DNA from: Smithella sp.
Lineage (GTDB): Bacteria > Desulfobacterota > Syntrophia > Syntrophales > Smithellaceae
Length of the DNA: 64,000 bases
Assembly (NCBI GenBank): GCA_035382085.1
Contig: DAOSZO010000004.1
Location: forward strand, 9,268-73,267
Direction: 5' to 3'
A program made the position numbers and the translations under genes. The notes below the pieces were generated by a model. It was not told where the DNA came from. It did no database searches and worked only from the letters and a program-made list of their open reading frames with translations. Below, piece after piece: positions 27,395 to 53,210 of this stretch (its first letter is position 1; every line of letters starts with the position of its first letter).

Positions 27395-28186
27395 TCAACG
27401 CATGGCCCGGTTGACGATGTCCTGATCGAAGTAATTGCAGGACATGCCCGCATCCACGACGATGCCCGCGGCGTTGATGCCGCTGGACGCGGGAGAAAGC
27501 AGAAACAGCACCGCATTTGCGACTTCTTCCGTCTTGAGCGCGGCTTTGCGCAGTGTCAGCTGTTCGGCGAACAGGTAATTGTTGACGTAGCCCGGAATGC
27601 CCGCGGAGGCGGAGGTTTTCAGGGGTCCCGAGCAAACTGCGTTGACCCTGATTTTCGAAAATTCCGAGAGGGATTTTGCCAGAAAGGCCACCGTCGCATC
27701 CAGCGCGGCCTTGATGGGGCCCATGTAACCGTAGGCGGTCGCCCGGGTGTTGCTGATGGAAAGGGTGACGATGGAGGCGTCTTCCTCAAGGGAATTCTTC
27801 AGCGCGTTGGCCAGCGCGACCAGCGAAAAACACGAGACGTTGACCGCCTGAAGAAAATCCTCCACCCGGGTTTCATGAAACGGCTTGAGGCCTTCGCTGT
27901 AGTTGGCAAAGGCGATGGAGTGGACGAAGCCGGCCAGGCGGATGTTGTTCTTCTCGAAATAGTCTCCGAGTTCGCGGATGCTTTCCGCTTTTTCCACATC
28001 GCAGATCAGAACAGTCCTGCCCGGGAAAAGCGCCTGCACCCGTTCCCGATGTTCGGCGGACTGCACGGAGAAAAAAACCTGCGAGCCGCTTTCGAAAAGG
28101 CCTCTGGCCACGAAAAACGCCACGCTTTTCTTGTTGGCGACGCCCGTTACCAAAAAATTTTTCCCGTTGATGTTGAGAAAGTCCAT
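27395..28186 (-). CDS. fabI: Enoyl-ACP reductase, FabI-type SDR
   Basis: GKNFLVTGVANKKSVAF, HSIAFAN, YGYMGPIKAALDA (Y-x6-K), RVNAVCSGPLKT. Confidence 0.8.
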   Translation of the reverse strand: MDFLNINGKNFLVTGVANKKSVAFFVARGLFESGSQVFFSVQSAEHRERVQALFPGRTVLICDVEKAESIRELGDYFEKNNIRLAGFVHSIAFANYSEGLKPFHETRVEDFLQAVNVSCFSLVALANALKNSLEEDASIVTLSISNTRATAYGYMGPIKAALDATVAFLAKSLSEFSKIRVNAVCSGPLKTSASAGIPGYVNNYLFAEQLTLRKAALKTEEVANAVLFLLSPASSGINAAGIVVDAGMSCNYFDQDIVNRAMR

Positions 28187-28195
28187 TCTCGGTCC

Positions 28196-28615
28196 TCACT
28201 TTTCCTGCTGAATCAATGCGGCCTGAAAGACAATTTTCAAGATGAGCTTGTCTCCGACATGAATGCTTCCATGCATGTAATAACCATTGGCCAGTTTTTC
28301 ATCGAGCGTAACCGTAATGGTCAGCGTGTCACCGGGGAAGGCAAAGTGTTTGAACTTGGCCTCCTTGATTCTAGTGACGACGCCCAGCCCCTTTTGATTG
28401 TCGGCGCCCATGAGAATCGCCCCGGTTTGAAAACAGGCCTCGCACAGCAAAACACCGGGCATGATCGGATAGCCGGGAAAATGCCCCTGAAAAAAATATT
28501 CATCCTCCCTCAACGTCCTTTGCGCCGTAATCGTATTGTCTTCCCGCCGAATAATTTTGTCCACAAAGAGAAACGGCGGACGCTGGGGAATCGTGTCGAG
28601 AATCTCTTTCATCAA
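28196..28615 (-). CDS. fabZ: 3-hydroxyacyl-ACP dehydratase (FabZ/FabA hot-dog fold)
   Basis: PQRPPFLFVDKI, FFQGHFPGYPIMPGVLLCEA. Confidence 0.8.
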   Translation of the reverse strand: MMKEILDTIPQRPPFLFVDKIIRREDNTITAQRTLREDEYFFQGHFPGYPIMPGVLLCEACFQTGAILMGADNQKGLGVVTRIKEAKFKHFAFPGDTLTITVTLDEKLANGYYMHGSIHVGDKLILKIVFQAALIQQEK

Positions 28616-29352
28616 AGCCCCCCCGCAACAATCAGGTTTGTTCCGGTAATATAAGAGGCCTCGCGGCTGGCCAGAAACATCACGGCATGGGCGACTTCCC
28701 GGACCTTGCCGAAGCGCCTCAGCGGAATCATCTTGAGATATTCTTTTCGCTGTTCCTCCGGCAAATCCTCGATCAGTTCGGTGTCAATGAAGCCGGGGGA
28801 AACACAGTTCACCGTGATGCCCTTTTTGGCCACCTCTTTGGCAAGCGACCGGGTCATGGCCATCTGACCGGCCTTGGAGGCCGCGTAGTTGGCCTGTCCC
28901 GGAAAGCCCAGATCCGCGCCCAGCGAGCTGATGTTGATGATCCGGCCGAAACGGTTGCCCATCAGGCGCGGGATGATTTCTCGCGACATGTAGAAGGTTC
29001 CGGTGAGATTGACTTCCAGGACTTTTTTCCACTGTTCATCCGTCATCAGGGCGGCCACCGCATCCTGACGGATGCCCGAATTGTTTACCAGCACTTCCAG
29101 CGAGGGATATTCTTCATCCAGAGAGCGAAACAGTTCCCGAACCGCCTGCGAAGACGAAACGTCGCACCTCCGCACATCGAGCCGTTCCGCGCAGGCTTCG
29201 TTTTTCTTTTGAAACTCGGCGGCGGCGGCATCATTGGAGGAATACACGGCAATGACCGTGGCGCCGGCGGCCAGAAAAGCCTCCGCAATTCCCGCGCCGA
29301 TTCCCCGCGTGCCGCCCGTCACAATCACCCGCTGGTTGCTGAAATCAAACAT
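28612..29352 (-). CDS. fabG: 3-oxoacyl-ACP reductase
   Basis: Start at ATG 29352 (MFDFSNQRVIVTGGTRGIG) with GAGGTG upstream. NNSGI, and YAASKAG (YxxxK). 4-nt overlap with fabZ. Confidence 0.85.
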   Translation of the reverse strand: MFDFSNQRVIVTGGTRGIGAGIAEAFLAAGATVIAVYSSNDAAAAEFQKKNEACAERLDVRRCDVSSSQAVRELFRSLDEEYPSLEVLVNNSGIRQDAVAALMTDEQWKKVLEVNLTGTFYMSREIIPRLMGNRFGRIINISSLGADLGFPGQANYAASKAGQMAMTRSLAKEVAKKGITVNCVSPGFIDTELIEDLPEEQRKEYLKMIPLRRFGKVREVAHAVMFLASREASYITGTNLIVAGGL

Positions 29353-29360
29353 GATGCACC

Positions 29361-30779
29361 TCAATTCAACGTTTCCAGATAATTTTCCACCTCATAGGAT
29401 TGAATCACGCCGTAGTTGGCGGCGCCCAGCCAGCCCGACATGATGATGCCCACGGAACCGGTGTGAAACAGGCCTTGAATTTCCTTGTGGAGGTTCATCG
29501 AAATCTCCAGCCCCTCATGCTTGGTGCCGAACGAGGATCCCTTTTCATGATGCGTGTACCGCTGAATGGTCAGCGGTGTCGCCGCCTCCAAGTAGTCAAT
29601 CTTTTTCGTCACCCCCGGAATAATCTTGTCCAGGCTGATCAGCGTCTCCGCGATCAATGCCTGCTTTTGTGCCTTGTACGCTTCCCGGGACAAATTCGCC
29701 CAATCCTCATACCGGGCGTTGGTGGAAACGACGATGGTATAGCCGGCATCGGGCAGATGCGGCCGCAGTTTCGGATAGTAGAGCGAAAAGGTCCGGCTGG
29801 TCGTTTTCATGGAGAGCAGTTCATCCGTGGCGAATTCCGGAGCCTCCGAATAGAAAATCAAATCGCCGACATCCTCCAGGGTCTCTCCCCTGCGAATGCC
29901 CATGTAAACCTGACAGGAGCTGGTGTTGAGCCGGACTTTTCTGACCTTTTCAATAAATTCGGCACTGAATTGGTCTTCCCCCGCGAGGTGAAAAATCGTG
30001 CCGATGAGGTTGCCGTTGGAGAGCACCGCCCTGGCCGAAATCGTCTGGCCGCCAACCATGACACCGCGGCAGACCTTGCCCTCCACAACAATTTTTTCCA
30101 CTTTCGATTTCAGGCGGATGTCCACGTCATTTTTCAAAAGCTCATCCTGCATCATGCCGATGACGAGATCGGTGCCGCCCTGAAAGGTGTAGACGCCCTT
30201 GCTCATGAAATTCGAAAAGACAATGCCGTAAGTGATGGCGGGATCCTCCAGCGTCGAGCCGTTGGCGTAAACAATGGGCTCGATCAGAAACCGGTGCACA
30301 TCCTTCCTGCCGGGGAAAAATCCCTCCAGCAACTCGCCGTTGGTCATCCGGTTGTCGTCGTAATAGTTCATATTCATGATGAGATTGAAAAAATTGTCGA
30401 CCTGCTGGCGCGGCACCTTGAAATCTTCGATGAGTTTGCGGGTGAAATCTTCCACCGTAAAGTCCGTTTCGATGGTGTAAAGCGGGTTGATGAAGCGGAC
30501 CCGCTTGAGCTGAACGATCCGGTCGGCAATTTGCCGGCTCCAGTATTTCCGGCAGGTTTTCACCATGCCGACCGGAAAGCCGTGCAGGGAAACATCAAAA
30601 ATATGATTCTTGCGGTAAAACCAGGTCGCAAAGCCGCCCAGCTTGTCGTGGGATTCCAGCAGCAGGACCTTCCAGCCGCTTTTGGCGAGCTTGTTGGCGG
30701 CGGTGAGCCCCCCCAGGCCGCCGCCGATCACAATCACATCGTATTTTTTTTCAATCCTGTCGTTTTTATCGAGAAGCAT
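29361..30779 (-). CDS. FAD-dependent oxidoreductase, phytoene-desaturase (CrtI)/amine-oxidase family, copy 1
   Basis: DVIVIGGGLGGLTAANKLAKSGWKVLLLESHDKLGG dinucleotide fold. 472 aa. The 477-aa plus-strand ORF is an antisense shadow. Confidence 0.8.
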   Translation of the reverse strand: MLLDKNDRIEKKYDVIVIGGGLGGLTAANKLAKSGWKVLLLESHDKLGGFATWFYRKNHIFDVSLHGFPVGMVKTCRKYWSRQIADRIVQLKRVRFINPLYTIETDFTVEDFTRKLIEDFKVPRQQVDNFFNLIMNMNYYDDNRMTNGELLEGFFPGRKDVHRFLIEPIVYANGSTLEDPAITYGIVFSNFMSKGVYTFQGGTDLVIGMMQDELLKNDVDIRLKSKVEKIVVEGKVCRGVMVGGQTISARAVLSNGNLIGTIFHLAGEDQFSAEFIEKVRKVRLNTSSCQVYMGIRRGETLEDVGDLIFYSEAPEFATDELLSMKTTSRTFSLYYPKLRPHLPDAGYTIVVSTNARYEDWANLSREAYKAQKQALIAETLISLDKIIPGVTKKIDYLEAATPLTIQRYTHHEKGSSFGTKHEGLEISMNLHKEIQGLFHTGSVGIIMSGWLGAANYGVIQSYEVENYLETLN

Positions 30780-30781
30780 GC

Positions 30782-31756
30782 CTACCTCACCAGCAAATCC
30801 AGGGCCTGTTCAATCGAAACTCGCGGTTCGTAACCGAAATCTCTTTTCGCCTTTTCATGCGAAAAATAATGACAGCGGGAAAACTGCAGCGCCACAAATC
30901 GGGTCATCGGCGGCTCCCCCTTGATGTTTAAAAATTTATAGCAGGATTCAAAAAATAGTCCAATGTTAAATACAACCCCTTCGGGCACCTTCCGGGTGAT
31001 CGGCGGCAGGTGATGGCGTTTGAGAATTTCGTTGATGAACTCCCAAAGCACCACCGGCCGTTCCTGGCCGATGAAGTACGCCTGTCCAGCGACCGACGCC
31101 CCCGGGCACAATTTTTCGAAAGCCAGAAGATGGGCGTCCACCGCGTTTTGAATGTAGGTGACATCCACCAGATTTTTGCCGGAGCCGACAATTTTCAGCC
31201 GCCCTTTTTTCGCCGCGTCAACCAGTCTCGGCACGAGATGCGGATCGTCCGGCCCGATAATCTGATGCGGCCGGAGGGCGACGGTGCAAAGTGTCTTATC
31301 GTTGGCCCGCAAAACCATCTGTTCGGCCGCGGCTTTGGTCTCGGAATAAGCATTGTAAAATTTCCGCGAATACGGTTGGGTTTCGTCGGCTCCGCAAATG
31401 TCGCTGCCGTCGAAAACGACGCTGGGCGTGCTGGTGTAGATTAATCGGGGGATGTTATGGACGCGGCAGGCCTTGATGACGTTTTGCGTGCCGATGACGT
31501 TTGTCCGGTAATACTCTTTGGGATCACCCCAGATGCCGACCCGCGAGGCCGCATGAAAAACCGCCTCCATGCCTTTGAAGGCCGACACAACATCGGCTTC
31601 AGTCTGGAGATCCCCGCAGAGCGTCTCGATCCCCGCCTTTCCCAGGGACGGATACCGCCTGCGGCTGAAGTTCCAGACCCTGTGCCCGCGTGAAATCAAG
31701 GCCAGGGCAAGGTTCCTTCCCAGAAATCCCCCGGCGCCGGTGACCAAAACATTCAT
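30782..31756 (-). CDS. oleD: OleD: NAD(P)H-dependent 2-alkyl-3-ketoalkanoate reductase (3-beta-HSD/epimerase-type SDR)
   Basis: Start at ATG 31756, in an ATGA overlap with the oleC stop. MNVLVTGAGGFLG, YSETK (YxxxK). Fourth position in an A-B-C-D gene order. Confidence 0.75.
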   Translation of the reverse strand: MNVLVTGAGGFLGRNLALALISRGHRVWNFSRRRYPSLGKAGIETLCGDLQTEADVVSAFKGMEAVFHAASRVGIWGDPKEYYRTNVIGTQNVIKACRVHNIPRLIYTSTPSVVFDGSDICGADETQPYSRKFYNAYSETKAAAEQMVLRANDKTLCTVALRPHQIIGPDDPHLVPRLVDAAKKGRLKIVGSGKNLVDVTYIQNAVDAHLLAFEKLCPGASVAGQAYFIGQERPVVLWEFINEILKRHHLPPITRKVPEGVVFNIGLFFESCYKFLNIKGEPPMTRFVALQFSRCHYFSHEKAKRDFGYEPRVSIEQALDLLVR

Positions 31757-33378
31757 ATCTTCCCCCTCATGACCTCCTGCGCCAGTTTCAGGCGGTCGAT
31801 TTTGATGTTGTGCCGAACGTCCACGGGAAAACGATCGCAGAAATGCACGGACCCGATCTGCGCCGTCAGGGGATTGCCGCGGGCCATCTCCAGCAGTTGC
31901 CCGGCCAGAACCTGCCGGTTCATTTTTCTGCCCTTCGCGTTGCGTTCGATGACCACCGCGACGGACTGCTTTCCCCGCTTCCCCCACGCGACCAGCGCCG
32001 ACCGGGCAACGGCCTCATGCGCGTTGAACACCGCTTCGCACGGCACCGGACACAAAAGCCCCGCCGGCGTTTCGGCGCGATGCGCTTTCCTACCGCAAAA
32101 CCAGAGCCTTCCCCGATCATCCAGGTATCCCAGATCGCCCATTCTGTGCCACAGGGAGGGGCCGTCGGCAATCTTGGCCAGCGCCGTTTCTTCCGGCGAC
32201 TGGTAATAGCGGGGCGTCACCACATTGCCCCTGACAATAATCTCGCCGATTTCATAAGGCTTCAATAATTTCGCGTCCCGAATTTCGGCGACCGCGTCGT
32301 CGCGGATTTCCAGAATCGCCACGTCCAAGCCCGCCACCGGCCGGCCCACGCATGTTCCCCTGCCCTGACGCGTCAGTGCCGCCGTTTGCGCAAGAATCTC
32401 TTCCCCTGAGATATTGGAGATGGGAAGGCACTCGGTTGCACCGTAAGGCGTGTAGGTTGTTCCGTTGGGCAGGATGCGCCTGAATTGCTCATGGAGTTCA
32501 ACACGCACCGGCGCCCCGAACATCACCAGGTATTTGACGGACGGAAGCGTGACGCCGTTTTTCAGACAGTAGTCGGCGACTCCCTGCCAGATGGCGGGAG
32601 AACCGGCCAGAAACGTGGCCTGGTTGTCGGTGATGTTCTGAACCAGCCTTTGGGGATCCGCCTGCGCGGGCCTGGAAGGATTCATGTCGGGAATGCAGCT
32701 TGTCATCCCCATGCAAAGCGTGAAAAGAGAAAAAAGCGGAAAACCGGGCAAATCAATTTCCCGGTCGTTGAGCGCAAACAGCTCCCGCAGAAGCCTGGTC
32801 TGCTCGTAATAAATCCGGTGGGTGTAGACGACGCCCTTGGGCCGACCCGTTCCGCCGGAAGTAAACAGAATGGCCGCCATGTCATCCGGCTGAAGCTGGG
32901 CGGTCTCGAAAGGGGGTTCGGATTTTTCCAGTTCGGCCAAAGCGGCGCAATTCCCGAACGGGAGCCGTTTCGTCGTCACTCTCAACTTCACGGATTTGAA
33001 GGCCCTGCCGAAAAGCAGGCTCAAAAAATGAACTTCCGGTTCAGCGATCAAGCCCTCGGGCGACACTTCCTCTATCGCGGCAAGAAGATTTTTTCTGCCC
33101 ATGCCCGGATCAATCAGGACCGGAACGACACCCAGTCTGAAAAGGGCAAACACCAGAGCGGGAAATCGCAACGACGGCCGGACAAACAAAAGGGTTTTGC
33201 CGCCGCGCCGAAAACCGAGGCGGTGAAGACCGCCGGCATATCGGTCGGCCAGCCGATTGAGCTCCCCGAACGTGATGGCGTCATAGACATACCGGCCTTT
33301 CTTCCGGCGCGGATATTTCACCGCCGTCTTGTCGCGGTGCGAGGCCGCTATGTCTGCAAAAAGATCGGCAATGTTCAT
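31753..33378 (-). CDS. oleC: OleC: AMP-dependent synthetase/ligase family (beta-lactone synthetase)
   Basis: ILFTSGGTGRPKGVVYTH AMP-binding motif. 541 aa. Sits between the OleB-like and OleD-like genes. Confidence 0.75.
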   Translation of the reverse strand: MNIADLFADIAASHRDKTAVKYPRRKKGRYVYDAITFGELNRLADRYAGGLHRLGFRRGGKTLLFVRPSLRFPALVFALFRLGVVPVLIDPGMGRKNLLAAIEEVSPEGLIAEPEVHFLSLLFGRAFKSVKLRVTTKRLPFGNCAALAELEKSEPPFETAQLQPDDMAAILFTSGGTGRPKGVVYTHRIYYEQTRLLRELFALNDREIDLPGFPLFSLFTLCMGMTSCIPDMNPSRPAQADPQRLVQNITDNQATFLAGSPAIWQGVADYCLKNGVTLPSVKYLVMFGAPVRVELHEQFRRILPNGTTYTPYGATECLPISNISGEEILAQTAALTRQGRGTCVGRPVAGLDVAILEIRDDAVAEIRDAKLLKPYEIGEIIVRGNVVTPRYYQSPEETALAKIADGPSLWHRMGDLGYLDDRGRLWFCGRKAHRAETPAGLLCPVPCEAVFNAHEAVARSALVAWGKRGKQSVAVVIERNAKGRKMNRQVLAGQLLEMARGNPLTAQIGSVHFCDRFPVDVRHNIKIDRLKLAQEVMRGKI

Positions 33379-33411
33379 AAAAAACGCGATGCGTGACCTT
33401 CCCGGCGGGTT

Positions 33412-34272
33412 TTAAATAAAACGCTTGAGTTCATTCAGTACTTCATCGGCGGCGTCTTCCAGGACGTAATGGCCGGCGCCGGGAAAAGTTTTGACTGTTG
33501 CCTGAGGGTAAATTTCCTGCCAGCGTTTGAGGAAATAATCGTGAAAGCAGAAATCCTTTTCCCCCCAGAGAATCAGAATCGGACAGCAATGCCGCGAGAG
33601 GGATTCCCCGATCTCCTTCAGCGTTTGGTAACTGCGGTGGTTCGGCTTCATGGGAATATCGGATACAAACCGGGCAGTCGCAATCCGGTTTTCATAACTG
33701 TCATAGGGGAAAAGATAGCCCCGTCTGATGTCCGGCGGCATTTTTTTTGCCACCGCCATGTAGGTGGCGACCCACGCGAAGGCGTTGAAGCGCCGGATGA
33801 TCTGCTCGGCCAAGACGGGGATCCGGCACATATTGATTCTCAAGGCGATCACCTCGGACGGATAGGCGGCGGTATTGAGAATGACGATTTTTTTGACCAG
33901 TTCCGGATGCCGCGCGATCAGCCCGAAGCCGATGGGCCCGCCCCAGTCGTGGACGATCAGGACAAAAGACTTGAGCTGCAGATGCCCGACGAGTTTTTCC
34001 AGATTCTGGATGTGACGCTCCAGCGTGTAGTCGTAATCCTGCGGCTTGTCCGAAAGTCCGCATCCGATATGGTCGGGAACCACGACCCGGTGGGTTTTGG
34101 AAAACGCGGCTGCCAGATTCCGGTAATAAAAGGACCAGGTGGGATTGCCGTGCAGCATCAGAATCGGCTCGCCGCTTCCTTCATCGAGATAGTGCATGGA
34201 CAGCTTCCCGTCCACTTCGAAAAAACGGGATGGAAAAGGATAAAGCCGGTCGAGCCACTGGGGTCTTACCAT
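33412..34272 (-). CDS. oleB: OleB: haloalkane-dehalogenase-like alpha/beta hydrolase (beta-lactone decarboxylase)
   Basis: LMLHGNPTWSFYYRNL, VHDWGGPIG nucleophile elbow. 7-nt overlap with oleA. Confidence 0.75.
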   Translation of the reverse strand: MVRPQWLDRLYPFPSRFFEVDGKLSMHYLDEGSGEPILMLHGNPTWSFYYRNLAAAFSKTHRVVVPDHIGCGLSDKPQDYDYTLERHIQNLEKLVGHLQLKSFVLIVHDWGGPIGFGLIARHPELVKKIVILNTAAYPSEVIALRINMCRIPVLAEQIIRRFNAFAWVATYMAVAKKMPPDIRRGYLFPYDSYENRIATARFVSDIPMKPNHRSYQTLKEIGESLSRHCCPILILWGEKDFCFHDYFLKRWQEIYPQATVKTFPGAGHYVLEDAADEVLNELKRFI

Positions 34273-35297
34273 TTCACCCCCAGCATGATGGAATTGAGTC
34301 CCGATCCGATTCCCAGCAGAGCGACGCGGCTGCCGACGGGAATCTTTTTCTGCTCGTCATAGAGGCACAGCGTGACGGGCAGCGCCGAAGCGCCGGTGTT
34401 TCCCAAAAACGGATACGTCGCGAAGGTGGGGCGGTTTTCCAGCTTCAGGGTCTGCTTGAGCAGGTTTTCATGCGCCACGCCCACCTGATGCCCCACAAAG
34501 CAATCCACATCCTCGTTGGTCCATCCCAGTTCCATTTTGGTGGCTTCCCAGGTTTTTTCCGCCAGCGCGACTCCCGCCAGCATCAGTTCTTCGGAGTCGG
34601 TCTCCATCATCAACGAAGTGGTGTTGCCGTTGCCGCGGCACAGCACGTTGGCCGAAGAATCGGCAAGCGCAACGCCGCCCAGCAGCGAGTGGCCGCCTTC
34701 CACCTCATCCCGGTGAGACACGGTCAGAGCGACGGCGGCCGAGCCGATCGTCAGATTGGCAATGTACTTTTTAATGCTTTTCCGGGTAACGGAAAGATCT
34801 TTCAGCAGCAGATCAAGGGTTTCGAACAGCAAAGGGCCTCCATTCTCTCCTGAAACGATCAACGCGTGCCGGATCTGTCCGTTTTCAATCATGTTGGCGG
34901 CGATGACCATCGAACTCATCACGCCCAGACAGGCGTTGGACAAATCGAAAAACATCGTCCGCGGCGGCAATCCCAGATGGTGGTGCACGATGGAGGACGT
35001 CGAAGGTTCCAGGAAGTCACGGCAGACGGACGCGTGGATGAGCAAATCAATCTGCTCGGGCTGGATGATATTTTTCGCAAAGAGATTTCTGGCCGCCTGC
35101 GCGGACAGGTCGCTGGGCATCGTGCCGGGGGGCCAGATGCGCCTTTCGCGGATTCCCGTCATCAATTCGATGCGGCCGCGCGGAAGTTTGAGCCGCTCAT
35201 AGAGGGGAGCCAGTCTGTTCTCGATCTCGTCGGAGGGGATGATCTGTTCGGGCAGATGATAGGCCAGCGAGGAAATCACCGCGTGGTTGAACTTCAT
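34266..35297 (-). CDS. oleA: OleA: FabH-like thiolase (non-decarboxylative Claisen condensation of two acyl chains)
   Basis: Start at ATG 35297, in an ATGA overlap with the upstream flavoprotein stop. FDLSNACLG active-site Cys, and GHQVG / GNTGASALP (His/Asn). Confidence 0.7.
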   Translation of the reverse strand: MKFNHAVISSLAYHLPEQIIPSDEIENRLAPLYERLKLPRGRIELMTGIRERRIWPPGTMPSDLSAQAARNLFAKNIIQPEQIDLLIHASVCRDFLEPSTSSIVHHHLGLPPRTMFFDLSNACLGVMSSMVIAANMIENGQIRHALIVSGENGGPLLFETLDLLLKDLSVTRKSIKKYIANLTIGSAAVALTVSHRDEVEGGHSLLGGVALADSSANVLCRGNGNTTSLMMETDSEELMLAGVALAEKTWEATKMELGWTNEDVDCFVGHQVGVAHENLLKQTLKLENRPTFATYPFLGNTGASALPVTLCLYDEQKKIPVGSRVALLGIGSGLNSIMLGVKW

Positions 35298-36679
35298 GCC
35301 TTGTCTCCGTTCATCAGGCAATGAAGATTGGCCATCGAGATGCCGCTGAGCATGGCGCCGACAATCCCCAGAAATCCCTGATCCGTCCCGCAGATAAAAA
35401 GATTCTTGATCGCGGTGCGTCCGTCCCGGACTTTTTGCGTCGTGCCGTAAACGGCTCCGCGGAGGTGACCGGTATAGCGCATGATCGTCCGCGGCGTAAA
35501 GACGTCCCAGTAATTCAGTTTGGCGTCAAATCGAGGAAACAACTGCTTAATTAAGGCCAGGGATTGATCGCGCACCTCTTTTTTCTTCAAAAGATAGACC
35601 GGCCTGTCCAGTTCATTCCATTTCTCAAAATTGGCAATAAAGGTCACTCGAATGACGCCTTCGTCATAATCATCATGCGCGAAATTGTTCGGAAAACAAA
35701 CCACGGCGCTGTCATAGTCGCAAAGCTCATCCGGCTTACGGTAGAGATATTGTTCCCGGTTGTTATAGAAAATGATCGTCTCCAGAATGCCCTGTTCGGC
35801 CGGCTTTTTGTCGAAGAATAAAATCGTTTCCGTAAAACTCATCGCCCCGGCCGCCGGACATTCCTGCGGTTCCGAAACCATGTTCATCGTTTCCGGCAGA
35901 CCGATGGAAGACATGACCCTGCCTGCCTGAAGGATTTCGCCGTTCTCAAGAATCACCTGCCGGACGACGCCGTTTTCCACATCTATTTTCCGGATGCCGG
36001 CTCCCAGGCGTAGTTCCCCGCCGAGCTGCAGATATTTTTCGATGAGCAGGTGAATGATGGAGCGCACGCCGTTCTTCGGCCGGCTGAAGCCCTCCAGAAA
36101 AATGCTTTTGAACATGATCACGAACTGCGAGAAATCCATGTCGTTTTCCCAGGCGCTGCCGTAAATCAGCAGAGGGCAAAAAATCATTTCCAGCAGGTTC
36201 TCGTCGGTGATGAACTCGCGGACCTTCTCCTTGGCGCTCTGGTAACGGTTCTGCAGATTGACGTCGTCAAAACGCAGGACAACCTCAAGAAGGCGGGAAA
36301 AATTTTCCTTCTGACGGGGAAAACACCGAGCGATTTCACTGATCAGCAGCTGCTGATCATTGGAAAAGGACAACTGCCGCCGGGGAAAAACAATGCGTGA
36401 AAAATGCTGCGGATACAGCTCAAGCTGTTCGTAGGGAATTCTCAACTGTTTGAGCAGTTTCGTCAACGGCCGGCCCTTCTCGCCTTTGCGGCAGAAGTTG
36501 GTCATGGCGTGAAGTCCGACATCGAGTCTTCTTCCGAAGCGCTCGTAATAGGAGTTCAAGCCGCCGGGCACCTTGTGCTTCTCCAGAATACAAACCTTCT
36601 GGTCAAACATCGCCAGCCGGATTCCGGCCGCGAGCCCCGACATGCCCGCGCCGATGATGATGGTGTCATAATGTGCCAT
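35294..36679 (-). CDS. FAD-dependent oxidoreductase, phytoene-desaturase (CrtI)/amine-oxidase family, copy 2
   Basis: YDTIIIGAGMSGLAAGIRLAMFDQKVCILEKHKVPGG. 461 aa. Confidence 0.8.
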   Translation of the reverse strand: MAHYDTIIIGAGMSGLAAGIRLAMFDQKVCILEKHKVPGGLNSYYERFGRRLDVGLHAMTNFCRKGEKGRPLTKLLKQLRIPYEQLELYPQHFSRIVFPRRQLSFSNDQQLLISEIARCFPRQKENFSRLLEVVLRFDDVNLQNRYQSAKEKVREFITDENLLEMIFCPLLIYGSAWENDMDFSQFVIMFKSIFLEGFSRPKNGVRSIIHLLIEKYLQLGGELRLGAGIRKIDVENGVVRQVILENGEILQAGRVMSSIGLPETMNMVSEPQECPAAGAMSFTETILFFDKKPAEQGILETIIFYNNREQYLYRKPDELCDYDSAVVCFPNNFAHDDYDEGVIRVTFIANFEKWNELDRPVYLLKKKEVRDQSLALIKQLFPRFDAKLNYWDVFTPRTIMRYTGHLRGAVYGTTQKVRDGRTAIKNLFICGTDQGFLGIVGAMLSGISMANLHCLMNGDKA

Positions 36680-36687
36680 ATAAAATT

Positions 36688-36933
36688 TCAGGAAAACTTG
36701 GGTCCCAAATATTCAATGCAGCTTTTCATGGTGGCCAGCTTCGGATAATCTTCCTGCGGCACTTCGATTTTGTATCTTTTCTTCAGTTCCATCACGATAT
36801 CCAGAAAATCCATGGAATCCAGATCCAGCTGATCGCGGAGCCTCACTTCATCATCAATGTTGGACAAATCCTCATCGACGGCGATTTCCGCGATGATATC
36901 GATAATTTTCTGTCTTACGGCGTTATAATCCAC
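36688..36933 (-). CDS. Acyl carrier protein
   Basis: GTG start at 36933, 6 nt after GGAGG. 81 aa. Phosphopantetheine site LDLDSMDFLDIV. Confidence 0.8.
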   Translation of the reverse strand: MDYNAVRQKIIDIIAEIAVDEDLSNIDDEVRLRDQLDLDSMDFLDIVMELKKRYKIEVPQEDYPKLATMKSCIEYLGPKFS

Positions 36934-36956
36934 TTGCTTCCTCCTTCTGTTTCTTC

Positions 36957-38204
36957 TTACTGAATATATTTTTTGACGATTAAAACGGAATTGATGCCGA
37001 GCATGCCGAAAGAATTGTTTAAAATGACGTTGACTTCTTTCTCGACGGGATCCCCATTGACCAAGTTCTTCAGGGCGCATTTCGGATCGATATTTTCGAT
37101 ATGCTTGCAGGAATGGATTTTGTTATCGGTGAAACTGGGCAGATTGCCGGCCAGTTCCAGCGCTCCGGCCGCACCCATCGCGTGGCCGATAAAACCTTTG
37201 GTGCAGTTGATGTATGTCCTGTCGGATTCGGCAAAAACCGTCCGGACGGCCTCGCATTCGTTTTCATCTCCGGACACGGTGCCGGTGGCGTGAAGATTGA
37301 CGATATCAACATCTCGAGGCGAGATCTGCGCCTTTTTCAAGGCTGCGGTCATGCACTGAATTTGTCTTTGCGTATCCGGCAGAACGAAATCCACCGCGTC
37401 GGAGTTGACATAATAACCGGCAATTTCGCCGTATATCTTCGCACCCCGTTTTTCCGCGTCTTGGAGTCTCTCCAGCACAAAAATCGCGCCGCCTTCCGCA
37501 ACGACAATGCCGTTGCGGCTGATGTCCAGCGGCCGGCAGGCCTTGGTCGGATCTTCGTGAGAGCCCAGGGCACCCTGGCTTTTGAAGCCGGCGAAAATGC
37601 CGAAGGTGCCCGTGCATTCGGAGACGCCTCCCGCCAGCACCAGGTCCACCTCTCCCAGCTGCAGCATCTGCATGCCGTGAATGATCCCGATATTGCCGGC
37701 GGCGCAGGCGGCGCCGATCGTGTAGGCGGGTCCGGTGATGCCCAGGTTCAGGCTGACCTCGCCGGCTGGCGTGTTGGCCACCGTTCTGGGGTTATGGTGA
37801 TGCGACCACAGGCTGACATCCAGATTGTTCTGGTGAAGTTCGTAAATTTCATTTTCGGTTTCCACGTTGCCGTGTTCGGTAATTCCCAGATAAATGCCGG
37901 TTCTTTCCCGATCAATGGATTCCAAAGATAATCCGCTATCTTTGAGCGCCTCGTGGGCGCAGTAAATCGAAATCGAGCCGGCTCTCGTTCCCCTCCGGCG
38001 CATCTTTTTCTTCTGATAGAGTTCTTCGTTGAAGTTGCAATTGCCGACGGCGAGCCGTCCCATATAGCGGACTTCCATTTCGGTAATGCCTGATTTCTGT
38101 CCCAAAAGCGCTTCACGGAATTCTTTCAAATTGTTGCCGTTGGGAGCGGTCAAACCGACTCCGGTAATAACGACTCTGGTATGTTTGTTAAGGGTCATGG
38201 TCAA
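36957..38204 (-). CDS. Beta-ketoacyl-ACP synthase I/II family (catalytically complete)
   Basis: VVITGVGLTAP, IGAACAAGN (Cys), LHATGT (His), GHAMGAAG (His). Confidence 0.85.
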   Translation of the reverse strand: MTMTLNKHTRVVITGVGLTAPNGNNLKEFREALLGQKSGITEMEVRYMGRLAVGNCNFNEELYQKKKMRRRGTRAGSISIYCAHEALKDSGLSLESIDRERTGIYLGITEHGNVETENEIYELHQNNLDVSLWSHHHNPRTVANTPAGEVSLNLGITGPAYTIGAACAAGNIGIIHGMQMLQLGEVDLVLAGGVSECTGTFGIFAGFKSQGALGSHEDPTKACRPLDISRNGIVVAEGGAIFVLERLQDAEKRGAKIYGEIAGYYVNSDAVDFVLPDTQRQIQCMTAALKKAQISPRDVDIVNLHATGTVSGDENECEAVRTVFAESDRTYINCTKGFIGHAMGAAGALELAGNLPSFTDNKIHSCKHIENIDPKCALKNLVNGDPVEKEVNVILNNSFGMLGINSVLIVKKYIQ

Positions 38205-38246
38205 TTTTTCTTAAAATTTTCCTTTGAATCCAATAATATAAATTCG

Positions 38247-38310
38247 GGGCAGGATGATTATTGTCTTGTCGCCCCCATTACAAAACAAAATTTTTGCAAT
38301 CATCCTGCCC
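38247..38310. repeat. 13-bp perfect inverted repeat with a 38-nt spacer, upstream of the KS-ACP-ole operon
   Basis: GGGCAGGATGATT (38247-38259) and AATCATCCTGCCC (38298-38310), 43-106 nt upstream of the KS start codon. Confidence 0.5.
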
Positions 38311-38426
38311 GTTAATATCAGAGCAATAATCTGAAAGTATAGTTTTGCTAACAGTTTTACCCGAACATGTCAACAAGAAATTGAGGAAATACTCACTTTA
38401 TTTTGAGACAATCCTCAAATTTTTGA

Positions 38427-38918
38427 TTATCCTGTCTTTTTTATGATTTCGATCATTATTTTGGCGCAGGCGAGGGTATCGGACAGAGCATCATGATGGC
38501 GCAAGTCAATTTTAAAATTCCGGCACACGGCGGGCAGGTTTGTGGGATAGAGGCCGAAAATCTGCCGGCAAAGTCTCATGGTGCATTTGAAATCAACTTC
38601 CGGCGGAACAATGCCGTATCTGGCGCAACAAGCCCTCAAGACATTGTGGTCAAAGCTAGCATTATGCGCAACCGCGAAATCGATATTTTTGAAGAAGGGC
38701 TTGATATTTTCCCACTGTTGTCTGAAATCAGGCTGATCGGCGACATCTTCCCAGGAAAACCCATGAAGATAACTGAAAACAAAATCCCTATAAGGCGGGC
38801 GGATAAGAAACGAGGCCTGCTCGACGATGGCGTTATGCTCCACCCGAACCAGCCCCAGCGCGCAGGCGCTGTCCCGATAATAATTTGCGGTTTCAAAATC
38901 AAGTGCCAGAAAATTCAT
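38427..38918 (-). CDS. DEDD-family 3'-5' exonuclease (DnaQ/epsilon-like domain)
   Basis: ALDFETAN (ExoI), AHNASFDHNVL (ExoII), HHDALSDTLACA (ExoIII, DEDDh). Confidence 0.8.
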   Translation of the reverse strand: MNFLALDFETANYYRDSACALGLVRVEHNAIVEQASFLIRPPYRDFVFSYLHGFSWEDVADQPDFRQQWENIKPFFKNIDFAVAHNASFDHNVLRACCARYGIVPPEVDFKCTMRLCRQIFGLYPTNLPAVCRNFKIDLRHHDALSDTLACAKIMIEIIKKTG

Positions 38919-38965
38919 GACAAAATTTTGTTATTGTTACAATTTATCCCGAAATTAATCAATGA

Positions 38966-39931
38966 TCACGTTTCCAAGGCAACTTTGTTCCGCCCAGACA
39001 TTTTTGCCCGGTAGAGAGCAGCGTCCGCTTTTTTGAGGAAACTGGAATCTGTCTCTTCCGGTAAGAAAAGGGCCACGCCGAAACTCGCCGTTACGGCTTG
39101 ATTGATTTCCGGCCACTGGAGATTTTCCACGGCTTTGCGCATTCTTTCGGCGCATTCCATGGCTGCCTCCATCGTGGTATTGGGAAGAATCAGCAAAAAT
39201 TCTTCACCGCCATACCGCGCCAGGATGTCTTCCTGTCTGGACATTTGCCTCAAAACGCGCGCAATAGAAACAAGCACTTTGTCACCAATATCGTGCCCAT
39301 AAGTATCATTGACGGACTTAAAATGATCGATGTCCGCCATAATCGCGGACAACGGCAAACCGTGACGTCTTGAGGCGGACATTTCCCTTTCAAGAAGTTC
39401 CTGAAATTGTCTTCGGTTGGTCAGACCGGTTAACGGATCGGTATTCATTAATTTCGTAATCGTTTCGTTCGCGAGTTCCAATTCTCTGTTTTTCTTGTTC
39501 AGTTCCCTGGTCATATCCGTCAGCTCATCGTTGAGTTTTGATATCGCGGCAACAAGCTCATGATCCGTCAGATGCAACGAGCAACCAAGCACGACATAAT
39601 AATCGTCCACCCTGACGATGTGGCCGGAAAGAGTCTGTTCCCGGCATTGATTCAAAGAAAACGAAAGCCTGATGCTTTGAAAATCAGGAGCTGAATTTTC
39701 ATGATTTATCAAAAGACCTTCATCGAGGAAACCATTGAGTAATTGACCGGTGGGTTTCTCTTCCAGTAAAAGATTATCCATGAAAAACCGGTTACAGTCC
39801 AGAATTTTACCCTCTTTATCGATCAGGATTACGGCTATCCTGCCGATGGACAGAAGATAGTGATAAAAAACTTCCGGATGACTGAAAAACACCTGATGAA
39901 GATTATCGACCGGATCGTTTTGCTTTACCAT
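38966..39931 (-). CDS. Diguanylate cyclase (PAS-like N-terminus, coiled coil, GGDEF domain with I-site)
   Basis: Start at ATG 39931, overlapping the upstream stop by 7 nt. DPLTGLTNRR, RQED I-site 5 aa before GGEEF. Confidence 0.85.
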   Translation of the reverse strand: MVKQNDPVDNLHQVFFSHPEVFYHYLLSIGRIAVILIDKEGKILDCNRFFMDNLLLEEKPTGQLLNGFLDEGLLINHENSAPDFQSIRLSFSLNQCREQTLSGHIVRVDDYYVVLGCSLHLTDHELVAAISKLNDELTDMTRELNKKNRELELANETITKLMNTDPLTGLTNRRQFQELLEREMSASRRHGLPLSAIMADIDHFKSVNDTYGHDIGDKVLVSIARVLRQMSRQEDILARYGGEEFLLILPNTTMEAAMECAERMRKAVENLQWPEINQAVTASFGVALFLPEETDSSFLKKADAALYRAKMSGRNKVALET

Positions 39932-41022
39932 TGATTCACCTGTTTGAGAGCGGCGTGCGGATCCTCCGCCCAAGCGTCAGCGTCGATGCGCCGCCACAAG
40001 TCGGCATCCCAATGAAAGGCCGGTCCGCCGACAATGATTTTTGTTTGGGACAAATCCGCTGATTCTTTCACTGTCGCAATAATCGCCGCCACCTTATCGA
40101 CATTAAACGGCATGGTAAGCGATATCGCGAGGAAACGCGGTTTGGTTTTCCGTAGAATCTTCATCAGTTCCACCGCCGGCGTGTTGGCGCCAAGAAAAAG
40201 AACATCCCATCCGTCAGCCTCCAGGATATCCGACAGCATTCTCCCGCCCAACTCATGAAATTCATTCGGCGCGGAAGTAACGACCGCTTTGCCCCTCGAT
40301 GGTTGTTTCGGCATGGGCCATTGATTATAGACGCCTGCAAGAATTCTTCCCACGACGGATGTCGCCAGATGTTCTTCGGCAACACTGATTTCGTCTTGCT
40401 CCCAGAGACGGCCGATTTCAGCCATTACAGGTTGTATCAGCCCCAGATAAAGCAATTCCTGTCCGTTTTCCTGCTGAAGTATTTCGTTCGCCATCGAAAG
40501 ACATTTCCTGAAATCGGCGGCCAGCAAATGTGAGAGAAAAACTTTCCGATCTTTTGCCAAGCGGGGATAGCGGTCCGTGGCATCAGACGGCGCTTCAGAA
40601 AGCGAAATCATCTTTCCATGATTCCTCAACATCCAGTCATAAACGGTAATGATTTCATCGGCAGAGGAAGCATCGAGAAATTTGCCGACGGCTTGCTTCC
40701 ATGTTTCGAGCTCCAGGGGAAAATAATCAAAAGAAAAACCGTGCGCGCGATAGGTGCGATAAACCCAGGGGACCATCCTCACCAGCATCTCATAGCTGTT
40801 AAATTGAAATACATTCGCCATAAAACCCCAATGATTGCTGTGATTATCGCGCACCATAGAAAAAGTATTTCCACCAATCAGATGAACGATCTGCGGATGC
40901 GACAGAACGGTAGTGTTGACATATTCCATGAGGGATTCTTTTTTGAGAATATACTGGGAAGCCGAACGTGGCGAAACAAACAAAGACTTCTGAACGTCCT
41001 TGATTAATTCATCCAACATCAT
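39925..41022 (-). CDS. Cobalamin-binding sensor-like protein (unknown N-domain, CarH-type four-helix cap, Rossmann B12-binding domain)
   Basis: W-x9-EH motif (RLWEQDEISVAEEHLA) followed by the ExHxxG lower-ligand motif (APNEFHELGG) and FLGANTP...RFLAISLT. No MerR/HTH domain. Confidence 0.75.
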   Translation of the reverse strand: MMLDELIKDVQKSLFVSPRSASQYILKKESLMEYVNTTVLSHPQIVHLIGGNTFSMVRDNHSNHWGFMANVFQFNSYEMLVRMVPWVYRTYRAHGFSFDYFPLELETWKQAVGKFLDASSADEIITVYDWMLRNHGKMISLSEAPSDATDRYPRLAKDRKVFLSHLLAADFRKCLSMANEILQQENGQELLYLGLIQPVMAEIGRLWEQDEISVAEEHLATSVVGRILAGVYNQWPMPKQPSRGKAVVTSAPNEFHELGGRMLSDILEADGWDVLFLGANTPAVELMKILRKTKPRFLAISLTMPFNVDKVAAIIATVKESADLSQTKIIVGGPAFHWDADLWRRIDADAWAEDPHAALKQVNQW

Positions 41023-41140
41023 AAAGCCCTCCTTGATGAATAATGGATTCAGTAACGAAAATGACCTGCTTAACGGGTGCTGGTTTCAGGAATCTTGATC
41101 ACGCAAAAAAGTATAAAATCGACGATGATTCATGTCAACC

Positions 41141-41178
41141 AAATAAAAGCCCCCTTGAGGCCTTCACCTCAAGGGGGC
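41141..41178 (-). terminator. Rho-independent terminator of the 41252..41527 gene
   Basis: 12-bp stem GCCCCCTTGAGG / CCTCAAGGGGGC with a 6-nt loop, followed on the minus strand by TTTTATTT. Confidence 0.7.
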
Positions 41179-41251
41179 AACCGCCACATAACAGATCATG
41201 ATTTTACGGACAGCGGTTATTTGTATTTTTTTCGAACCTTAAATCCTTATT

Positions 41252-41527
41252 TTACGCCACGATGTTTCTGACCGCTTCAATGACCGGATTGGTGAACAGG
41301 GCCATGAGCATGGTGTAAAGGGCAAAAGCGCCAACCATTTCCGTTACATACATTTTTTCATATTTTCTTTTCAGAGCCATCAGAATCAATCCGCCGAGAA
41401 TCAGCCCGCCCAACTGAAAATACGGAAAATTCGCCGCACCCGCAGCCGCGTATTCAGCGAATCCGAAAGTCGCCGTGAAGAGAACCACCGCCGCCGCCAC
41501 TGTCATTGTTCCTATTGTTTTTTTCAT
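41252..41527 (-). CDS. Small hypothetical membrane protein
   Basis: 91 aa, with an N-terminal signal-like segment plus two hydrophobic spans. GGAGG-type RBS upstream (aaaggaggtaacagatc ATG). Confidence 0.5.
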   Translation of the reverse strand: MKKTIGTMTVAAAVVLFTATFGFAEYAAAGAANFPYFQLGGLILGGLILMALKRKYEKMYVTEMVGAFALYTMLMALFTNPVIEAVRNIVA

Positions 41528-41797
41528 GATCTGTTACCTCCTTTCGGGGTATTGTTTTATTTGACTTTATGTAAATGAAATTATCGTGCCAGATTCACGG
41601 CAAAGATTAACTATTCTTCAACTGCCCGGAATGAAATGAGTTTTCCAAGACAAGGCGTGGCCAAAAAAAGATTTTTTCTTTTCTGACCGCAAAATTTTTT
41701 AAAGAAACGTTCAACAAACTAAATAAAAAATCAAAAGCTCTTTCCCTGCGGGCGGGCATGGGTTTGTCCGAAATTTCCGACCCAGGACTTTTCGAAC

Positions 41798-42277
41798 TTA
41801 TTTGGTTTTATTGAATTTCGCGAAAACCCAAAAGGGCATACCGATGGGGTTGAGGCTTTTGTACTGCTGTTTCCATGAAATGTAGTCTTCTATTTTTCGA
41901 ATGGTTTCCTCGGATGTGTCAACAAATTCCACCCCGGCCTCATAAGATACATCTTCCACGATCGTTTTAATCCACTTTACCCTGCCCAACGCAATGATCT
42001 TTTGATGAAGATTTTCCAGTTTCAATTCCATTTTCACCGTCGTGTCCACAGGCAAAAACATATCCCCGGAAAGCTTCACGCCAGAGCCGGAAAGATCCTT
42101 GCTCAAATGGTAGAATTTTTTCATTTTGGACAATTTTTCATTGTCGGAAACAATGGTAATCGTTACATCATGCTGCTCTTTGAGCCTTTCGTTTTTTCTT
42201 TTCTCTTCAGGAATGTTTCGTTCTGCATTTTTCTGTCCCTTATCTTTAATTGTTTTCTTCTTCGCATCTTCTTTCAT
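41798..42277 (-). CDS. PilZ-domain protein (c-di-GMP receptor candidate) with a lysine-rich N-terminus
   Basis: Start set at ATG 42277. DLSGSGVKL (D-x-S-x-x-G) block and a beta-barrel-like C-terminal pattern. The upstream RxxxR element is not clean (ERLKEQH). Confidence 0.55.
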   Translation of the reverse strand: MKEDAKKKTIKDKGQKNAERNIPEEKRKNERLKEQHDVTITIVSDNEKLSKMKKFYHLSKDLSGSGVKLSGDMFLPVDTTVKMELKLENLHQKIIALGRVKWIKTIVEDVSYEAGVEFVDTSEETIRKIEDYISWKQQYKSLNPIGMPFWVFAKFNKTK

Positions 42278-42465
42278 TTTCCTCGTCCCCCCCCCGTTAC
42301 AGAACGATTCTTCCTTTGGGATGAAAGTACTATAAATCTCAAAGAATCTCAATGGGATTAGTAAAAAATTTAGCCGGAACCCGACGAAGTCTTCTTGTTG
42401 GGAGATGACATCCGTCGTCAGAAATGTTGCTTTGGATAACCAACCGATTCTTCAGAAGCTTTTCG

Positions 42466-44466: not shown

Positions 44467-44608
44467 GACCCCCTCCTGTTTGGTTGATGATTGCAAACAA
44501 GCACTCATGCGGAAATTGATTCGATATAGGGAAATTATAGAAAGCCCACCGCGTCCTGTCAATAAAAATGGCCCGGCGGGCGAAGTATTTTTCGGATGGA
44601 ATATTTGT

Positions 44609-44637
44609 TTGACTTTTCCCCGACGCCCATTTAAATT
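44609..44637 (+). promoter_or_regulatory. Candidate sigma70-type promoter for the KS/CLF operon
   Basis: TTGACT (44609-44614), 17-nt spacer, TAAATT (44632-44637). Confidence 0.3.
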
Positions 44638-44692
44638 TCTGCAACCTGATGGAAAACCTTCATCGGCGCATTACACGAATTAAGGGAGGGAA

Positions 44693-53100: not shown

Positions 53101-53210
53101 AAAAATCTTCAGCCCCTCAATCCTCTAATCTTCTATTTTCCACGCGGCTTTTTATCTTGCCACTGCCCGGAAAATGTGGTTTAGAAAATCAGCGATCTTC
53201 ATATAAATTC

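Follow-up and report, generated by a model that had tools for sequence, protein, structure and literature searches.

An oleABCD module enclosed by its own type II fatty-acid synthase genes and two carotenoid-desaturase-fold flavoproteins in Smithella sp.

A 64,000-nucleotide stretch of DNA from Smithella sp. (assembly GCA_035382085.1, contig DAOSZO010000004.1, positions 9,268 to 73,267; referred to here as the window) contains an eleven-gene operon on the minus strand, at positions 27395–38198, in which homologues of oleABCD lie among genes for a type II fatty-acid synthase (FAS) and for two flavoproteins. The OleABCD enzymes condense two acyl chains head-to-head, reduce the product, form a β-lactone and decarboxylate it to a long-chain olefin. 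In the direction of transcription the operon encodes a β-ketoacyl-acyl carrier protein synthase (KS), an acyl carrier protein (ACP), a first flavoprotein (F1), OleA, OleB, OleC, OleD, a second flavoprotein (F2), FabG, FabZ and FabI, the last three being a ketoreductase (KR), a dehydratase (DH) and an enoyl reductase (ER), respectively (Table 1).

Gene families were assigned with Pfam and NCBIfam profiles and catalytic motifs were read from the translations, where the expected motifs were found for KS, ACP, OleB, OleC, OleD, FabZ and FabI. All eleven open reading frames (ORFs) are intact, with four or five overlaps and no gap wider than 33 nt. The F1/OleA and OleC/OleD junctions are both ATGA overlaps (35294–35297 and 31753–31756, OleD starting at 31756), OleA and OleB overlap by 7 nt (34266–34272), and FabG and FabZ overlap by 4 nt (28612–28615) with a TTG start or by 1 nt with an ATG start. 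The widest gap separates OleB from OleC (33 nt), the remaining ones ranging from 2 to 33 nt. For the KS, the more likely start is the ATG at 38198, two codons inside a TTG at 38204; FabG may start at the ATG at 29352, the alternative TTG at 29364 giving a 4-nt overlap with F2. The ACP was assigned to an ORF with a GTG start 3′ of a GGAGGA ribosome-binding site, which replaced a 130-aa ORF considered as a candidate. Plus-strand ORFs of 207–477 aa within the cluster were rejected as antisense shadows, with zero Pfam matches. The GC content of the cluster (0.53–0.57) is similar to that of the low-coordinate flank. A first-pass annotation, made by a model from the letters alone, had described eleven tightly packed minus-strand genes in this order; the ORFs, gaps and overlaps that it gave were borne out, and its family assignments hold at the Pfam level.

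Table 1 Features of the operon and of its upstream region, with positions in the window
Feature	Position	Strand	Basis of assignment
Elongating β-ketoacyl-ACP synthase (KS; FabF/B-like, divergent)	36957–38198	−	Pfam ketoacyl-synt N and C domains
Dedicated acyl carrier protein (ACP), 81 aa	36688–36933	−	PF00550, 28.5 bits (> 20.8)
Flavoprotein 1 (F1; amine-oxidase/carotenoid-desaturase fold, own subfamily)	35294–36679	−	PF01593 and NAD_binding_8
OleA-type thiolase (predicted head-to-head Claisen condensation)	34266–35297	−	NF006720/PRK09258, PDB match, Glu117
OleB-type α/β-hydrolase (putative β-lactone decarboxylase, haloalkane-dehalogenase-like)	33412–34272	−	Abhydrolase_1, context
OleC-type AMP-dependent β-lactone synthetase	31753–33378	−	NF006754/PRK09274, TSGGTGRPKG motif
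OleD-type NAD(P)H 2-alkyl-3-oxoalkanoate reductase	30782–31756	−	3Beta_HSD and Epimerase
Flavoprotein 2 (F2; distant paralogue of F1)	29361–30779	−	PF01593
FabG-type 3-oxoacyl-ACP reductase (KR)	28612–29352	−	adh_short_C2 and KR
FabZ-type 3-hydroxyacyl-ACP dehydratase (DH)	28196–28612	−	PF07977
FabI-like enoyl-ACP reductase (ER; divergent)	27395–28186	−	adh_short_C2
Candidate promoter: TTGACA, 17 nt, TAGCAA	38373–38368, 38350–38345	−	Conserved in alignment
Candidate operator: two TTGAG-N6-CTCAA palindromes	38403–38418, 38381–38396	−	5′ of promoter-like element
64-nt hairpin in presumed operon 5′ leader	38247–38310	−	RNA fold of 38199–38345

The thiolase scored 398.5 bits on NF006720/PRK09258 (cut-off 285), whereas FabH models gave it only 106–115 bits against cut-offs of 249–292. 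That NF006720/PRK09258 is the family containing OleA follows from the crystallised OleA of Xanthomonas campestris (3ROW sequence), which matches the same model with 476 bits. When the PDB was searched with the window sequence, the top twelve matches were all X. campestris OleA entries (E ~1e-61, 3ROW best), followed by an uncharacterised KAS III at 6e-27, while the best chain named FabH was matched at 6e-20, giving OleA a lead in E value of more than 30 orders of magnitude over FabH structures. Alignment with 3ROW showed that Cys143, His285, Asn315 and Glu117, the base specific to OleA, each have their counterpart in the window protein, and likewise in 47 cassette-linked homologues (conservation was seen in 23 cassette thiolases of type A and 20 of type B, as defined below). 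Grouping with ordinary FabH, named by the first-pass annotation as evidence that would speak against an ole module, was found neither by profile nor by nearest structure nor at Glu117, and from its sequence the thiolase is best described as OleA-type and not as FabH. An OleA of Halobacteriovorax marinus, which may or may not be the cassette-linked gene of that organism, was active in a reporter assay (PMC7064751).

The remaining members of the module are assigned by family, motif and position. OleB scored 152–163 bits on haloalkane dehalogenase models, under their cut-offs; its motifs HGNPTW, HDWGG and GAGHY are present with an intact Asp/His hydrolase site, and its position between OleA and OleC is kept in 24 loci. 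Since no OleB model was found among its NCBIfam matches, this call rests on genetic context. OleC passed the broader NF006754/PRK09274 model with 605 bits (cut-off 478), and full-length scores of 497 and 458 bits on the olefin β-lactone synthetase equivalogs NF045786/NF045785 fell short of their cut-offs of 900/850, which suggests an OleC-like but diverged enzyme. OleD carries the GAGGFLG (GxxGxxG) and YSETK (YxxxK) motifs and likewise failed the 580-bit equivalog cut-off, with full-length scores of 387 bits on oxyalk_red_Shew and 383 bits on oxyalk_red_OleD (NF042422/NF042423). These olefin-pathway models were nevertheless by far the best matches for both OleC and OleD. The earlier assignment of oleABCD by family and order is thus upheld, with OleA passing a curated model and OleB lying between OleA and OleC with its site intact; profile confirmation of all four proteins, which had also been proposed, succeeded for OleA and gave the expected best full-length matches for OleC and OleD at scores below the equivalog cut-offs.

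The five FAS-like proteins showed clear family membership combined with marked divergence. The best NCBIfam match of the KS was fabF at 299 bits (cut-off 494); its closest solved structures are FabF (E 1e-62), its Cys-His-His triad is intact (TIGAACAAG, HATGT and GHAMGAAG), and orthologues of 59–85% identity were found in 63 related loci. The ACP carries the serine motif LDLDSMDF and falls under every NCBIfam cut-off for housekeeping ACPs (46 vs 71). FabG passed the subfamily model NF009466 (255 bits, cut-off 222) and failed TIGR01830 (279 bits, cut-off 298). FabZ fell narrowly short on NF000582 (106.6 bits, cut-off 113), and the presence of His (GHFPG) and Glu (LLCEAC) identifies the DH as FabZ-type, not FabA-type. 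FabI has its Y-x6-K motif (YGYMGPIK) and reached only about 160 bits on the best FabI equivalogs, whose cut-offs are 299–477. The cluster holds no fabD, fabH, plsX or acc, and no thioesterase or CoA ligase by which an acyl-ACP could be turned into an acyl-CoA; only the F1 gene separates the ACP gene from oleA.

Both flavoproteins passed Pfam Amino_oxidase (cut-off 19.8), F1 with 60.5 bits and F2 with 47.3 bits. They are homologous to one another at about 22–26% identity (hhalign probability 99.9). Neither reached the 238-bit cut-off of the CrtI family TIGR02734 (F1 54.8 bits, F2 83.2 bits). The best curated match of both, under its cut-off, was the carotenoid isomerase model carot_isom (F1 100 bits, F2 109 bits), which belongs to the CRTISO/RetSat group; F2 also scored 98 bits on CrtD. 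A sequence search of the PDB with F1 and F2 matched little beyond the N-terminal FAD-binding motif. AlphaFold2 (AF2) models were therefore compared by fold. The models, built from alignments, were confident, with pLDDT values of 85.7 (F1) and 82.4 (F2). With Foldseek, the best folds for F1 were 4REP, 4DGK (CrtI) and 3KA7, and for F2 4REP (template-modelling (TM) score 0.72), with plant phytoene desaturase 5MOG also at 0.72; 4REP matched the two models at TM 0.69–0.72, and over all these structures TM ranged from 0.53 to 0.72 at 13–18% identity. Both F1 and F2 thus model with the three-domain fold of carotenoid desaturases. Their earlier description as CrtI-family flavoproteins stands for the fold and fails for family membership (55 and 83 vs 238 bits). 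The F1 subfamily is bounded: a search of 1.84 billion representatives gave 242 clusters (50% identity) at E ≤ 1e-30.

F2 served as the query for a genome scan and, together with F1, for homologue searches; context look-ups and a metagenome scan (80 loci) completed the collection, and all 87 related loci were annotated by tblastn. A Smithella metagenome-assembled genome (MAG; L001) carries all eleven genes in unchanged order at 71–86% identity, and seven metagenome contigs (L008, L011–L016) carry a collinear cluster at 50–85% identity. Together with the window, these eight loci form the collinear version of what we term type A, KS-ACP-F1-OleABCD-F2-FabG-FabZ-FabI. Homologues of F1 and F2 with 57–70% identity occur in Halobacteriovorax, other Bacteriovoracales and a MAG labelled Epsilonproteobacteria (Campylobacterota). 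In a convergent version of type A, seen in about ten loci from Bacteriovoracales and one Campylobacterota MAG (including L002, L004–L007, L019 and L021–L023), KS-ACP-F1-OleABCD faces F2-FabG-FabZ-FabI with 0–3 unrelated genes between them. Because the same eleven-gene order recurs in the Smithella MAG and seven contigs, and the modules are rearranged in other phyla, the arrangement is far beyond chance.

A further 50 loci, termed type B, have the order OleA-like gene, KS, ACP, F1, F2, FabG, FabZ, FabI and phosphopantetheinyl transferase (PPTase); examples are L076 (4686–15410), L030, L031, L037, L040, L042, L050, L084, L086 and some 40 more. No OleB, OleC or OleD was found in these 50 loci within the available 6–10 kb. 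Of the 21 loci whose upstream sequence is long enough to tell, 17 have the OleA-like gene directly 5′ of KS; its product retains Glu117 and reaches 457 bits on the OleA model. The PPTase gene lies 3′ of FabI in 16 loci. The closest relatives of type-B F1 are labelled as Dehalococcoidia/Chloroflexi MAGs, and more than 120 F1 clusters at ≥87% identity show type B to be very abundant in sediments. What is conserved is therefore a cassette of seven genes, KS-ACP-F1-F2-KR-DH-ER, found in the 87 related loci and always accompanied by an OleA-type thiolase; in the lineage of the window, OleABCD sits between F1 and F2. This co-occurrence spans four lineages and three gene orders and, as the link to OleA is invariable, the acyl product of the cassette appears destined for head-to-head condensation. 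The earlier idea that private KS, ACP, KR, DH and ER proteins and two flavoenzymes supply custom substrates thereby gains strong comparative-genomic support, these genes travelling together and always with OleA.

Several variants of these loci were also observed. In L031 (948–6204), L037 (6–4741) and L043, the OleA-like-KS-ACP triplet is duplicated in tandem before a single F1-F2-FabG-FabZ-FabI set, which suggests that two different chains are built on two carriers and then joined. A TrmB-like regulator gene lies directly 5′ of KS in ten loci from Bacteriovoracales and Campylobacterota (such as L003, 7836–8477, and L004, 7918–8532) and is absent upstream of KS in the window and the Smithella-like loci. 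In six Bacteriovoracales loci a conserved protein, about 700 aa long and matching no Pfam family, lies between the convergent modules (intervening regions L003 16541–19649, L007 13390–17866 and L006 13407–17087); L003 and L007 also encode a peroxiredoxin-glutaredoxin fusion there, which could be a hint of protection for an oxidation-prone lipid. The collinear L016 (9715–13381) has no detectable OleD, with a gap of about 670 nt between OleC and F2. Some Dehalococcoidia-type loci encode a 781-aa GLUG-motif protein between ACP and F1 (L076 7394–9739). Beside type B, at L076 15491–21327 and L040 13722–19540, there is also a 1412-aa BcrAD/BadFG-DUF2229 “CoA enzyme activase” fusion, kept in six loci, together with an SRPBCC protein and a radical-SAM protein (Pfam assignments checked in L076 only).

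With moderate confidence, we propose that the operon directs head-to-head hydrocarbon biosynthesis and also makes its own building blocks, with the flavoproteins acting on the ACP-bound chain. The dedicated KS, ACP, KR, DH and ER would extend an acyl chain on their own ACP, borrowing malonyl transfer and, in the window, also phosphopantetheinylation from housekeeping enzymes. Even with no OleBCD nearby, F1 is invariably found 3′ of ACP, and F2 as the first gene of its unit with FabG, FabZ and FabI, and from this placement we infer that both act on carrier-bound intermediates and not on the finished olefin. Their favoured role is to introduce, retain or isomerise double bonds during chain building, most likely independently of O2-dependent desaturases. 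OleA would then take two such acyl-ACPs directly in a non-decarboxylative Claisen condensation, OleD would reduce the resulting 2-alkyl-3-ketoacid, OleC would close the β-lactone and OleB would form a cis-olefin from it by decarboxylation. We expect a long-chain membrane hydrocarbon, probably polyunsaturated, although we advance the desaturated or polyunsaturated nature of the chain as a hypothesis.

A number of points weigh against this proposal. No organism with this exact cluster has a known product, the OleB, OleC and OleD scores lie under strict equivalog cut-offs, and the FabI-like reductase in the cassette argues for a largely fully reduced chain. At 13–18% identity to any solved structure, and with the CrtI threshold failed, F1 and F2 could be desaturases, isomerases or saturases. 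Anammox homologues of this general kind neither complemented CrtI nor led to any novel fatty acid in E. coli (PMC4790861), a result that, by analogy, cautions against easy assumptions about the role of such flavoproteins. The Desulfotalea psychrophila pair DP2405/DP2406, to which we return below, may be neither orthologous to F1 and F2 nor placed beside KS/ACP or ole genes. Lastly, the aerobe Halobacteriovorax carries the same system, which is therefore not specific to anaerobes.

The flavoproteins might alternatively act after condensation, in the manner of CrtI on 15-cis-phytoene, dehydrogenating positions beside the central cis double bond of the Ole product (or of the OleA-derived ketone); the product would then be a conjugated polyene hydrocarbon, and the fab-like genes would only supply ordinary saturated chains. 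Carotenoid desaturases, their best structural neighbours, do work on long hydrocarbons, the flavoprotein UfaD extends unsaturation beside an existing double bond, and with OleA in every cassette variant a condensed product would always be at hand. The conserved placement of F1 and F2, kept even without OleBCD, ties them instead to carrier-bound elongation, and we consider this alternative unlikely. Similarly improbable is a role as RetSat-like saturases or unrelated redox helpers, in which case the cluster would make a normal olefin of defined length, saturated or mono-unsaturated. Such a role would suit both the curated best match, carotenoid isomerase and not CrtI, and the complete KR-DH-ER set, but a FabI-like ER is already there, so that a second and third reductase would be redundant, and two distinct flavoproteins conserved at 57–70% between phyla imply two specific, selected reactions.

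The end product might also be a head-to-head lipid other than an olefin (for example a long-chain ketone, a mycolic-acid-like 2-alkyl-3-hydroxy acid or a β-lactone), above all in the OleBCD-less Dehalococcoidia version, with OleBCD as a lineage-specific add-on. This reading would account for the 50 loci lacking OleB, OleC and OleD, those with long flanks showing none within 6–10 kb, and for the OleA-like gene preceding KS; OleA alone is also known to give ketones in heterologous hosts (PMC6463001). The window, however, has OleB, OleC and OleD translationally coupled and with intact catalytic motifs, and OleBCD could lie elsewhere in type-B genomes, leaving this explanation with a small probability, below that of the two preceding ones. 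We dropped as very improbable the reading that the fab-like genes are the housekeeping type II FAS of the organism, adjoining oleABCD by chance. Although KS, ACP, KR, DH and ER are core FAS II activities, the KS, ACP and FabI score well under curated housekeeping cut-offs and FabZ narrowly so, fabD, fabH, plsX and acc are missing, type-B loci have their own PPTase, a better FabF (418 bits, cut-off 387) is encoded elsewhere in the window, and in four lineages the cassette has been inherited together with OleA and the two flavoproteins.

Within the proposal that the flavoproteins act on the ACP-bound chain, a more specific and rather doubtful version is that the cassette forms a discrete type II, Pfa- and O2-independent synthase of polyunsaturated acyl-ACP, with the CRTISO-like flavoenzymes as isomerases. 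F1 and F2 would then carry out trans-2 to cis-3 and trans-2 to cis-2 isomerisation, as FabA-type domains do in Pfa megasynthases. If true, this would account for the C31:8 and C31:9 hydrocarbons of anaerobes without pfa, Desulfotalea for one, would be the “anaerobic PUFA (polyunsaturated fatty acid) route” long postulated for ladderane precursors, and would imply that the abundant Dehalococcoidia of sediments produce head-to-head lipids of a class not yet recognised.

Upstream of the operon, a TTGACA-17 nt-TAnnAn element is common to four aligned Smithella-like loci (the window, L008, L011 and L013), and the two palindromes 5′ of it are conserved in Smithella-like loci, the one at 38403–38418 being the sole perfect TTGAG-N6-CTCAA match in the window. 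Judged from these letters, the elements may represent a promoter and operator; a generic promoter scan did not flag the element at 38373–38345, and in the window as a whole it found fewer promoter-like sites than in shuffled sequence. The presumed leader (38199–38345) folds at −40.5 kcal/mol (z = −4.4), none of 200 shuffles being as stable, and an Rfam scan of the whole window, this hairpin included, returned nothing at the gathering threshold. Terminator-like sites were somewhat more frequent than in shuffles (26 vs 16.8) but weak, with none at a gene junction, making the promoter and terminator scan uninformative.

Downstream of FabI lie genes for MobB, a threonine-synthase-like protein and AIR-synthase-related proteins. 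Directly upstream of the operon and on the same strand, 38427–42352 (GC 0.45, below that of the cluster) encodes an exonuclease of the RNase T type, a GGDEF diguanylate cyclase, a protein with two B12-binding domains and a PilZ protein. A second, separate lipid or polyketide cluster occupies 44465–60805 (plus strand 44465–57420, minus strand 58177–60805). It contains the FabF-like KS mentioned above, a second KS/chain-length-factor-like gene, a small ORF that is possibly an ACP, two B12-radical-SAM genes, a tyrosine/histidine (TAL/HAL-like) ammonia-lyase, a YbgC-type thioesterase, a Dak2/DegV protein, a GT2 glycosyltransferase, an MMPL-methyltransferase fusion, an LpxL-like acyltransferase and a StlD/DarB-family ketosynthase (533 bits, cut-off 450). 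This cluster resembles those for aryl polyenes, flexirubins and dialkylresorcinols, and also the “ladderane-type” clusters of Kuenenia; its KS pair holds the same position in the Smithella-like loci L008 and L011–L013. A 1407-aa ORF at 12249–16472, considered as a counterpart of the 1412-aa BcrAD/DUF2229 activase-like gene, proved to be a PPDK/PEP-utiliser protein, with PPDK-N and PEP-utiliser mobile domains in its C-terminal third and an N-terminal part of about 960 aa with no Pfam match.

Literature searches for this architecture found no paper describing it. The chemistry of the Ole half is known; the two carotenoid-desaturase-fold flavoenzymes and their private type II synthase are uncharacterised, and are anticipated only by loosely similar clusters in Desulfotalea and Kuenenia. 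This gene kit, recurring in several phyla, may be an undescribed route by which anaerobes make unsaturated lipids. The source of precursors for C31 polyunsaturates in the pfa-less strict anaerobe D. psychrophila has been a question since 2009, for which the cluster offers a concrete candidate. At 10.8 kb it is compact enough for heterologous expression, with the private synthase and flavoenzymes physically tied to OleA. The cassette occurs very commonly in Dehalococcoidia of sediments and in the predatory Bacteriovoracales, so that its product could be a lipid biomarker that has been missed, and if F1 and F2 desaturate or isomerise acyl-ACP they would constitute a new class of fatty-acid-modifying enzymes with possible use in engineered hydrocarbons.

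Among known flavoproteins, CrtI, CrtD and CRTISO share with F1 and F2 the FAD-binding amine-oxidase fold and provide their best Foldseek matches; they differ in the low identity and failed TIGR02734 score given above, and the window cluster has no carotenoid genes. In the furan fatty acid pathway of Rhodobacter sphaeroides, the phytoene-dehydrogenase-like NAD/FAD protein UfaD (PMC7380195) introduces a double bond into a fatty acyl chain beside an existing one, and is a precedent for such a reaction by a flavoprotein of this type. Unlike the role proposed here, UfaD acts on a phospholipid-bound methyl-branched 18:1 chain, its activity was seen only aerobically, and its gene is not beside ACP, KS or OleA.

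A closer parallel in gene content is found in D. psychrophila, which has no pfa genes and yet makes C31:8 and C31:9 hydrocarbons (Rattray 2009, PMC2649909). Its FASII clusters carry amine-oxidase-fold genes, including the adjacent pair DP2405/DP2406, and a novel anaerobic route to polyunsaturated chains was proposed in that work, which partly foreshadowed the architecture described here. Both the Desulfotalea clusters and those of Kuenenia stuttgartiensis (PMC2649909, PMC4790861) place extra fabF, ACP, fabZ and fabG genes beside amine-oxidase-fold flavoproteins; unlike the operon described here, they also encode enzymes of the radical-SAM family, a membrane protein and a CoA ligase, and they were not linked to ole genes. 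The adjacency of DP2405 and DP2406 recalls the F1-F2 pair of type B, a likeness drawn, as is that of kuste3336/3607 to F1 and F2, from the published descriptions. Sequences from Smithella, Bacteriovoracales and Dehalococcoidia made up the matches listed in our homologue searches, and the genome scan gave close relatives only.

The window matches the oleABCD systems of X. campestris, Shewanella oneidensis and Micrococcus luteus in family, order and catalytic residues, with an OleC and OleD too diverged for the equivalog cut-offs. In those systems the four genes stand alone or beside pfa genes, and the acyl chains come from the pools of the cell, whereas in the window they lie within a private KS-ACP-F1/F2-KR-DH-ER cassette. 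In Shewanella and Photobacterium, the Pfa synthase passes 16:4n-3 acyl-ACP directly to OleA, giving a C31:9 hydrocarbon (Allemann 2019, PMC6463001), and there, as here, dedicated lipid synthase genes are linked to ole genes. The Pfa supplier is a multidomain megasynthase with FabA-type dehydratase/isomerase domains; the window has discrete type II enzymes and two flavoproteins, and no multidomain polyketide synthase/FAS or Pfa-like gene was present among the annotated ORFs of its 64 kb. The closest known system is thus this pfa-ole coupling, with a type II set and two flavoproteins taking the place of the megasynthase.

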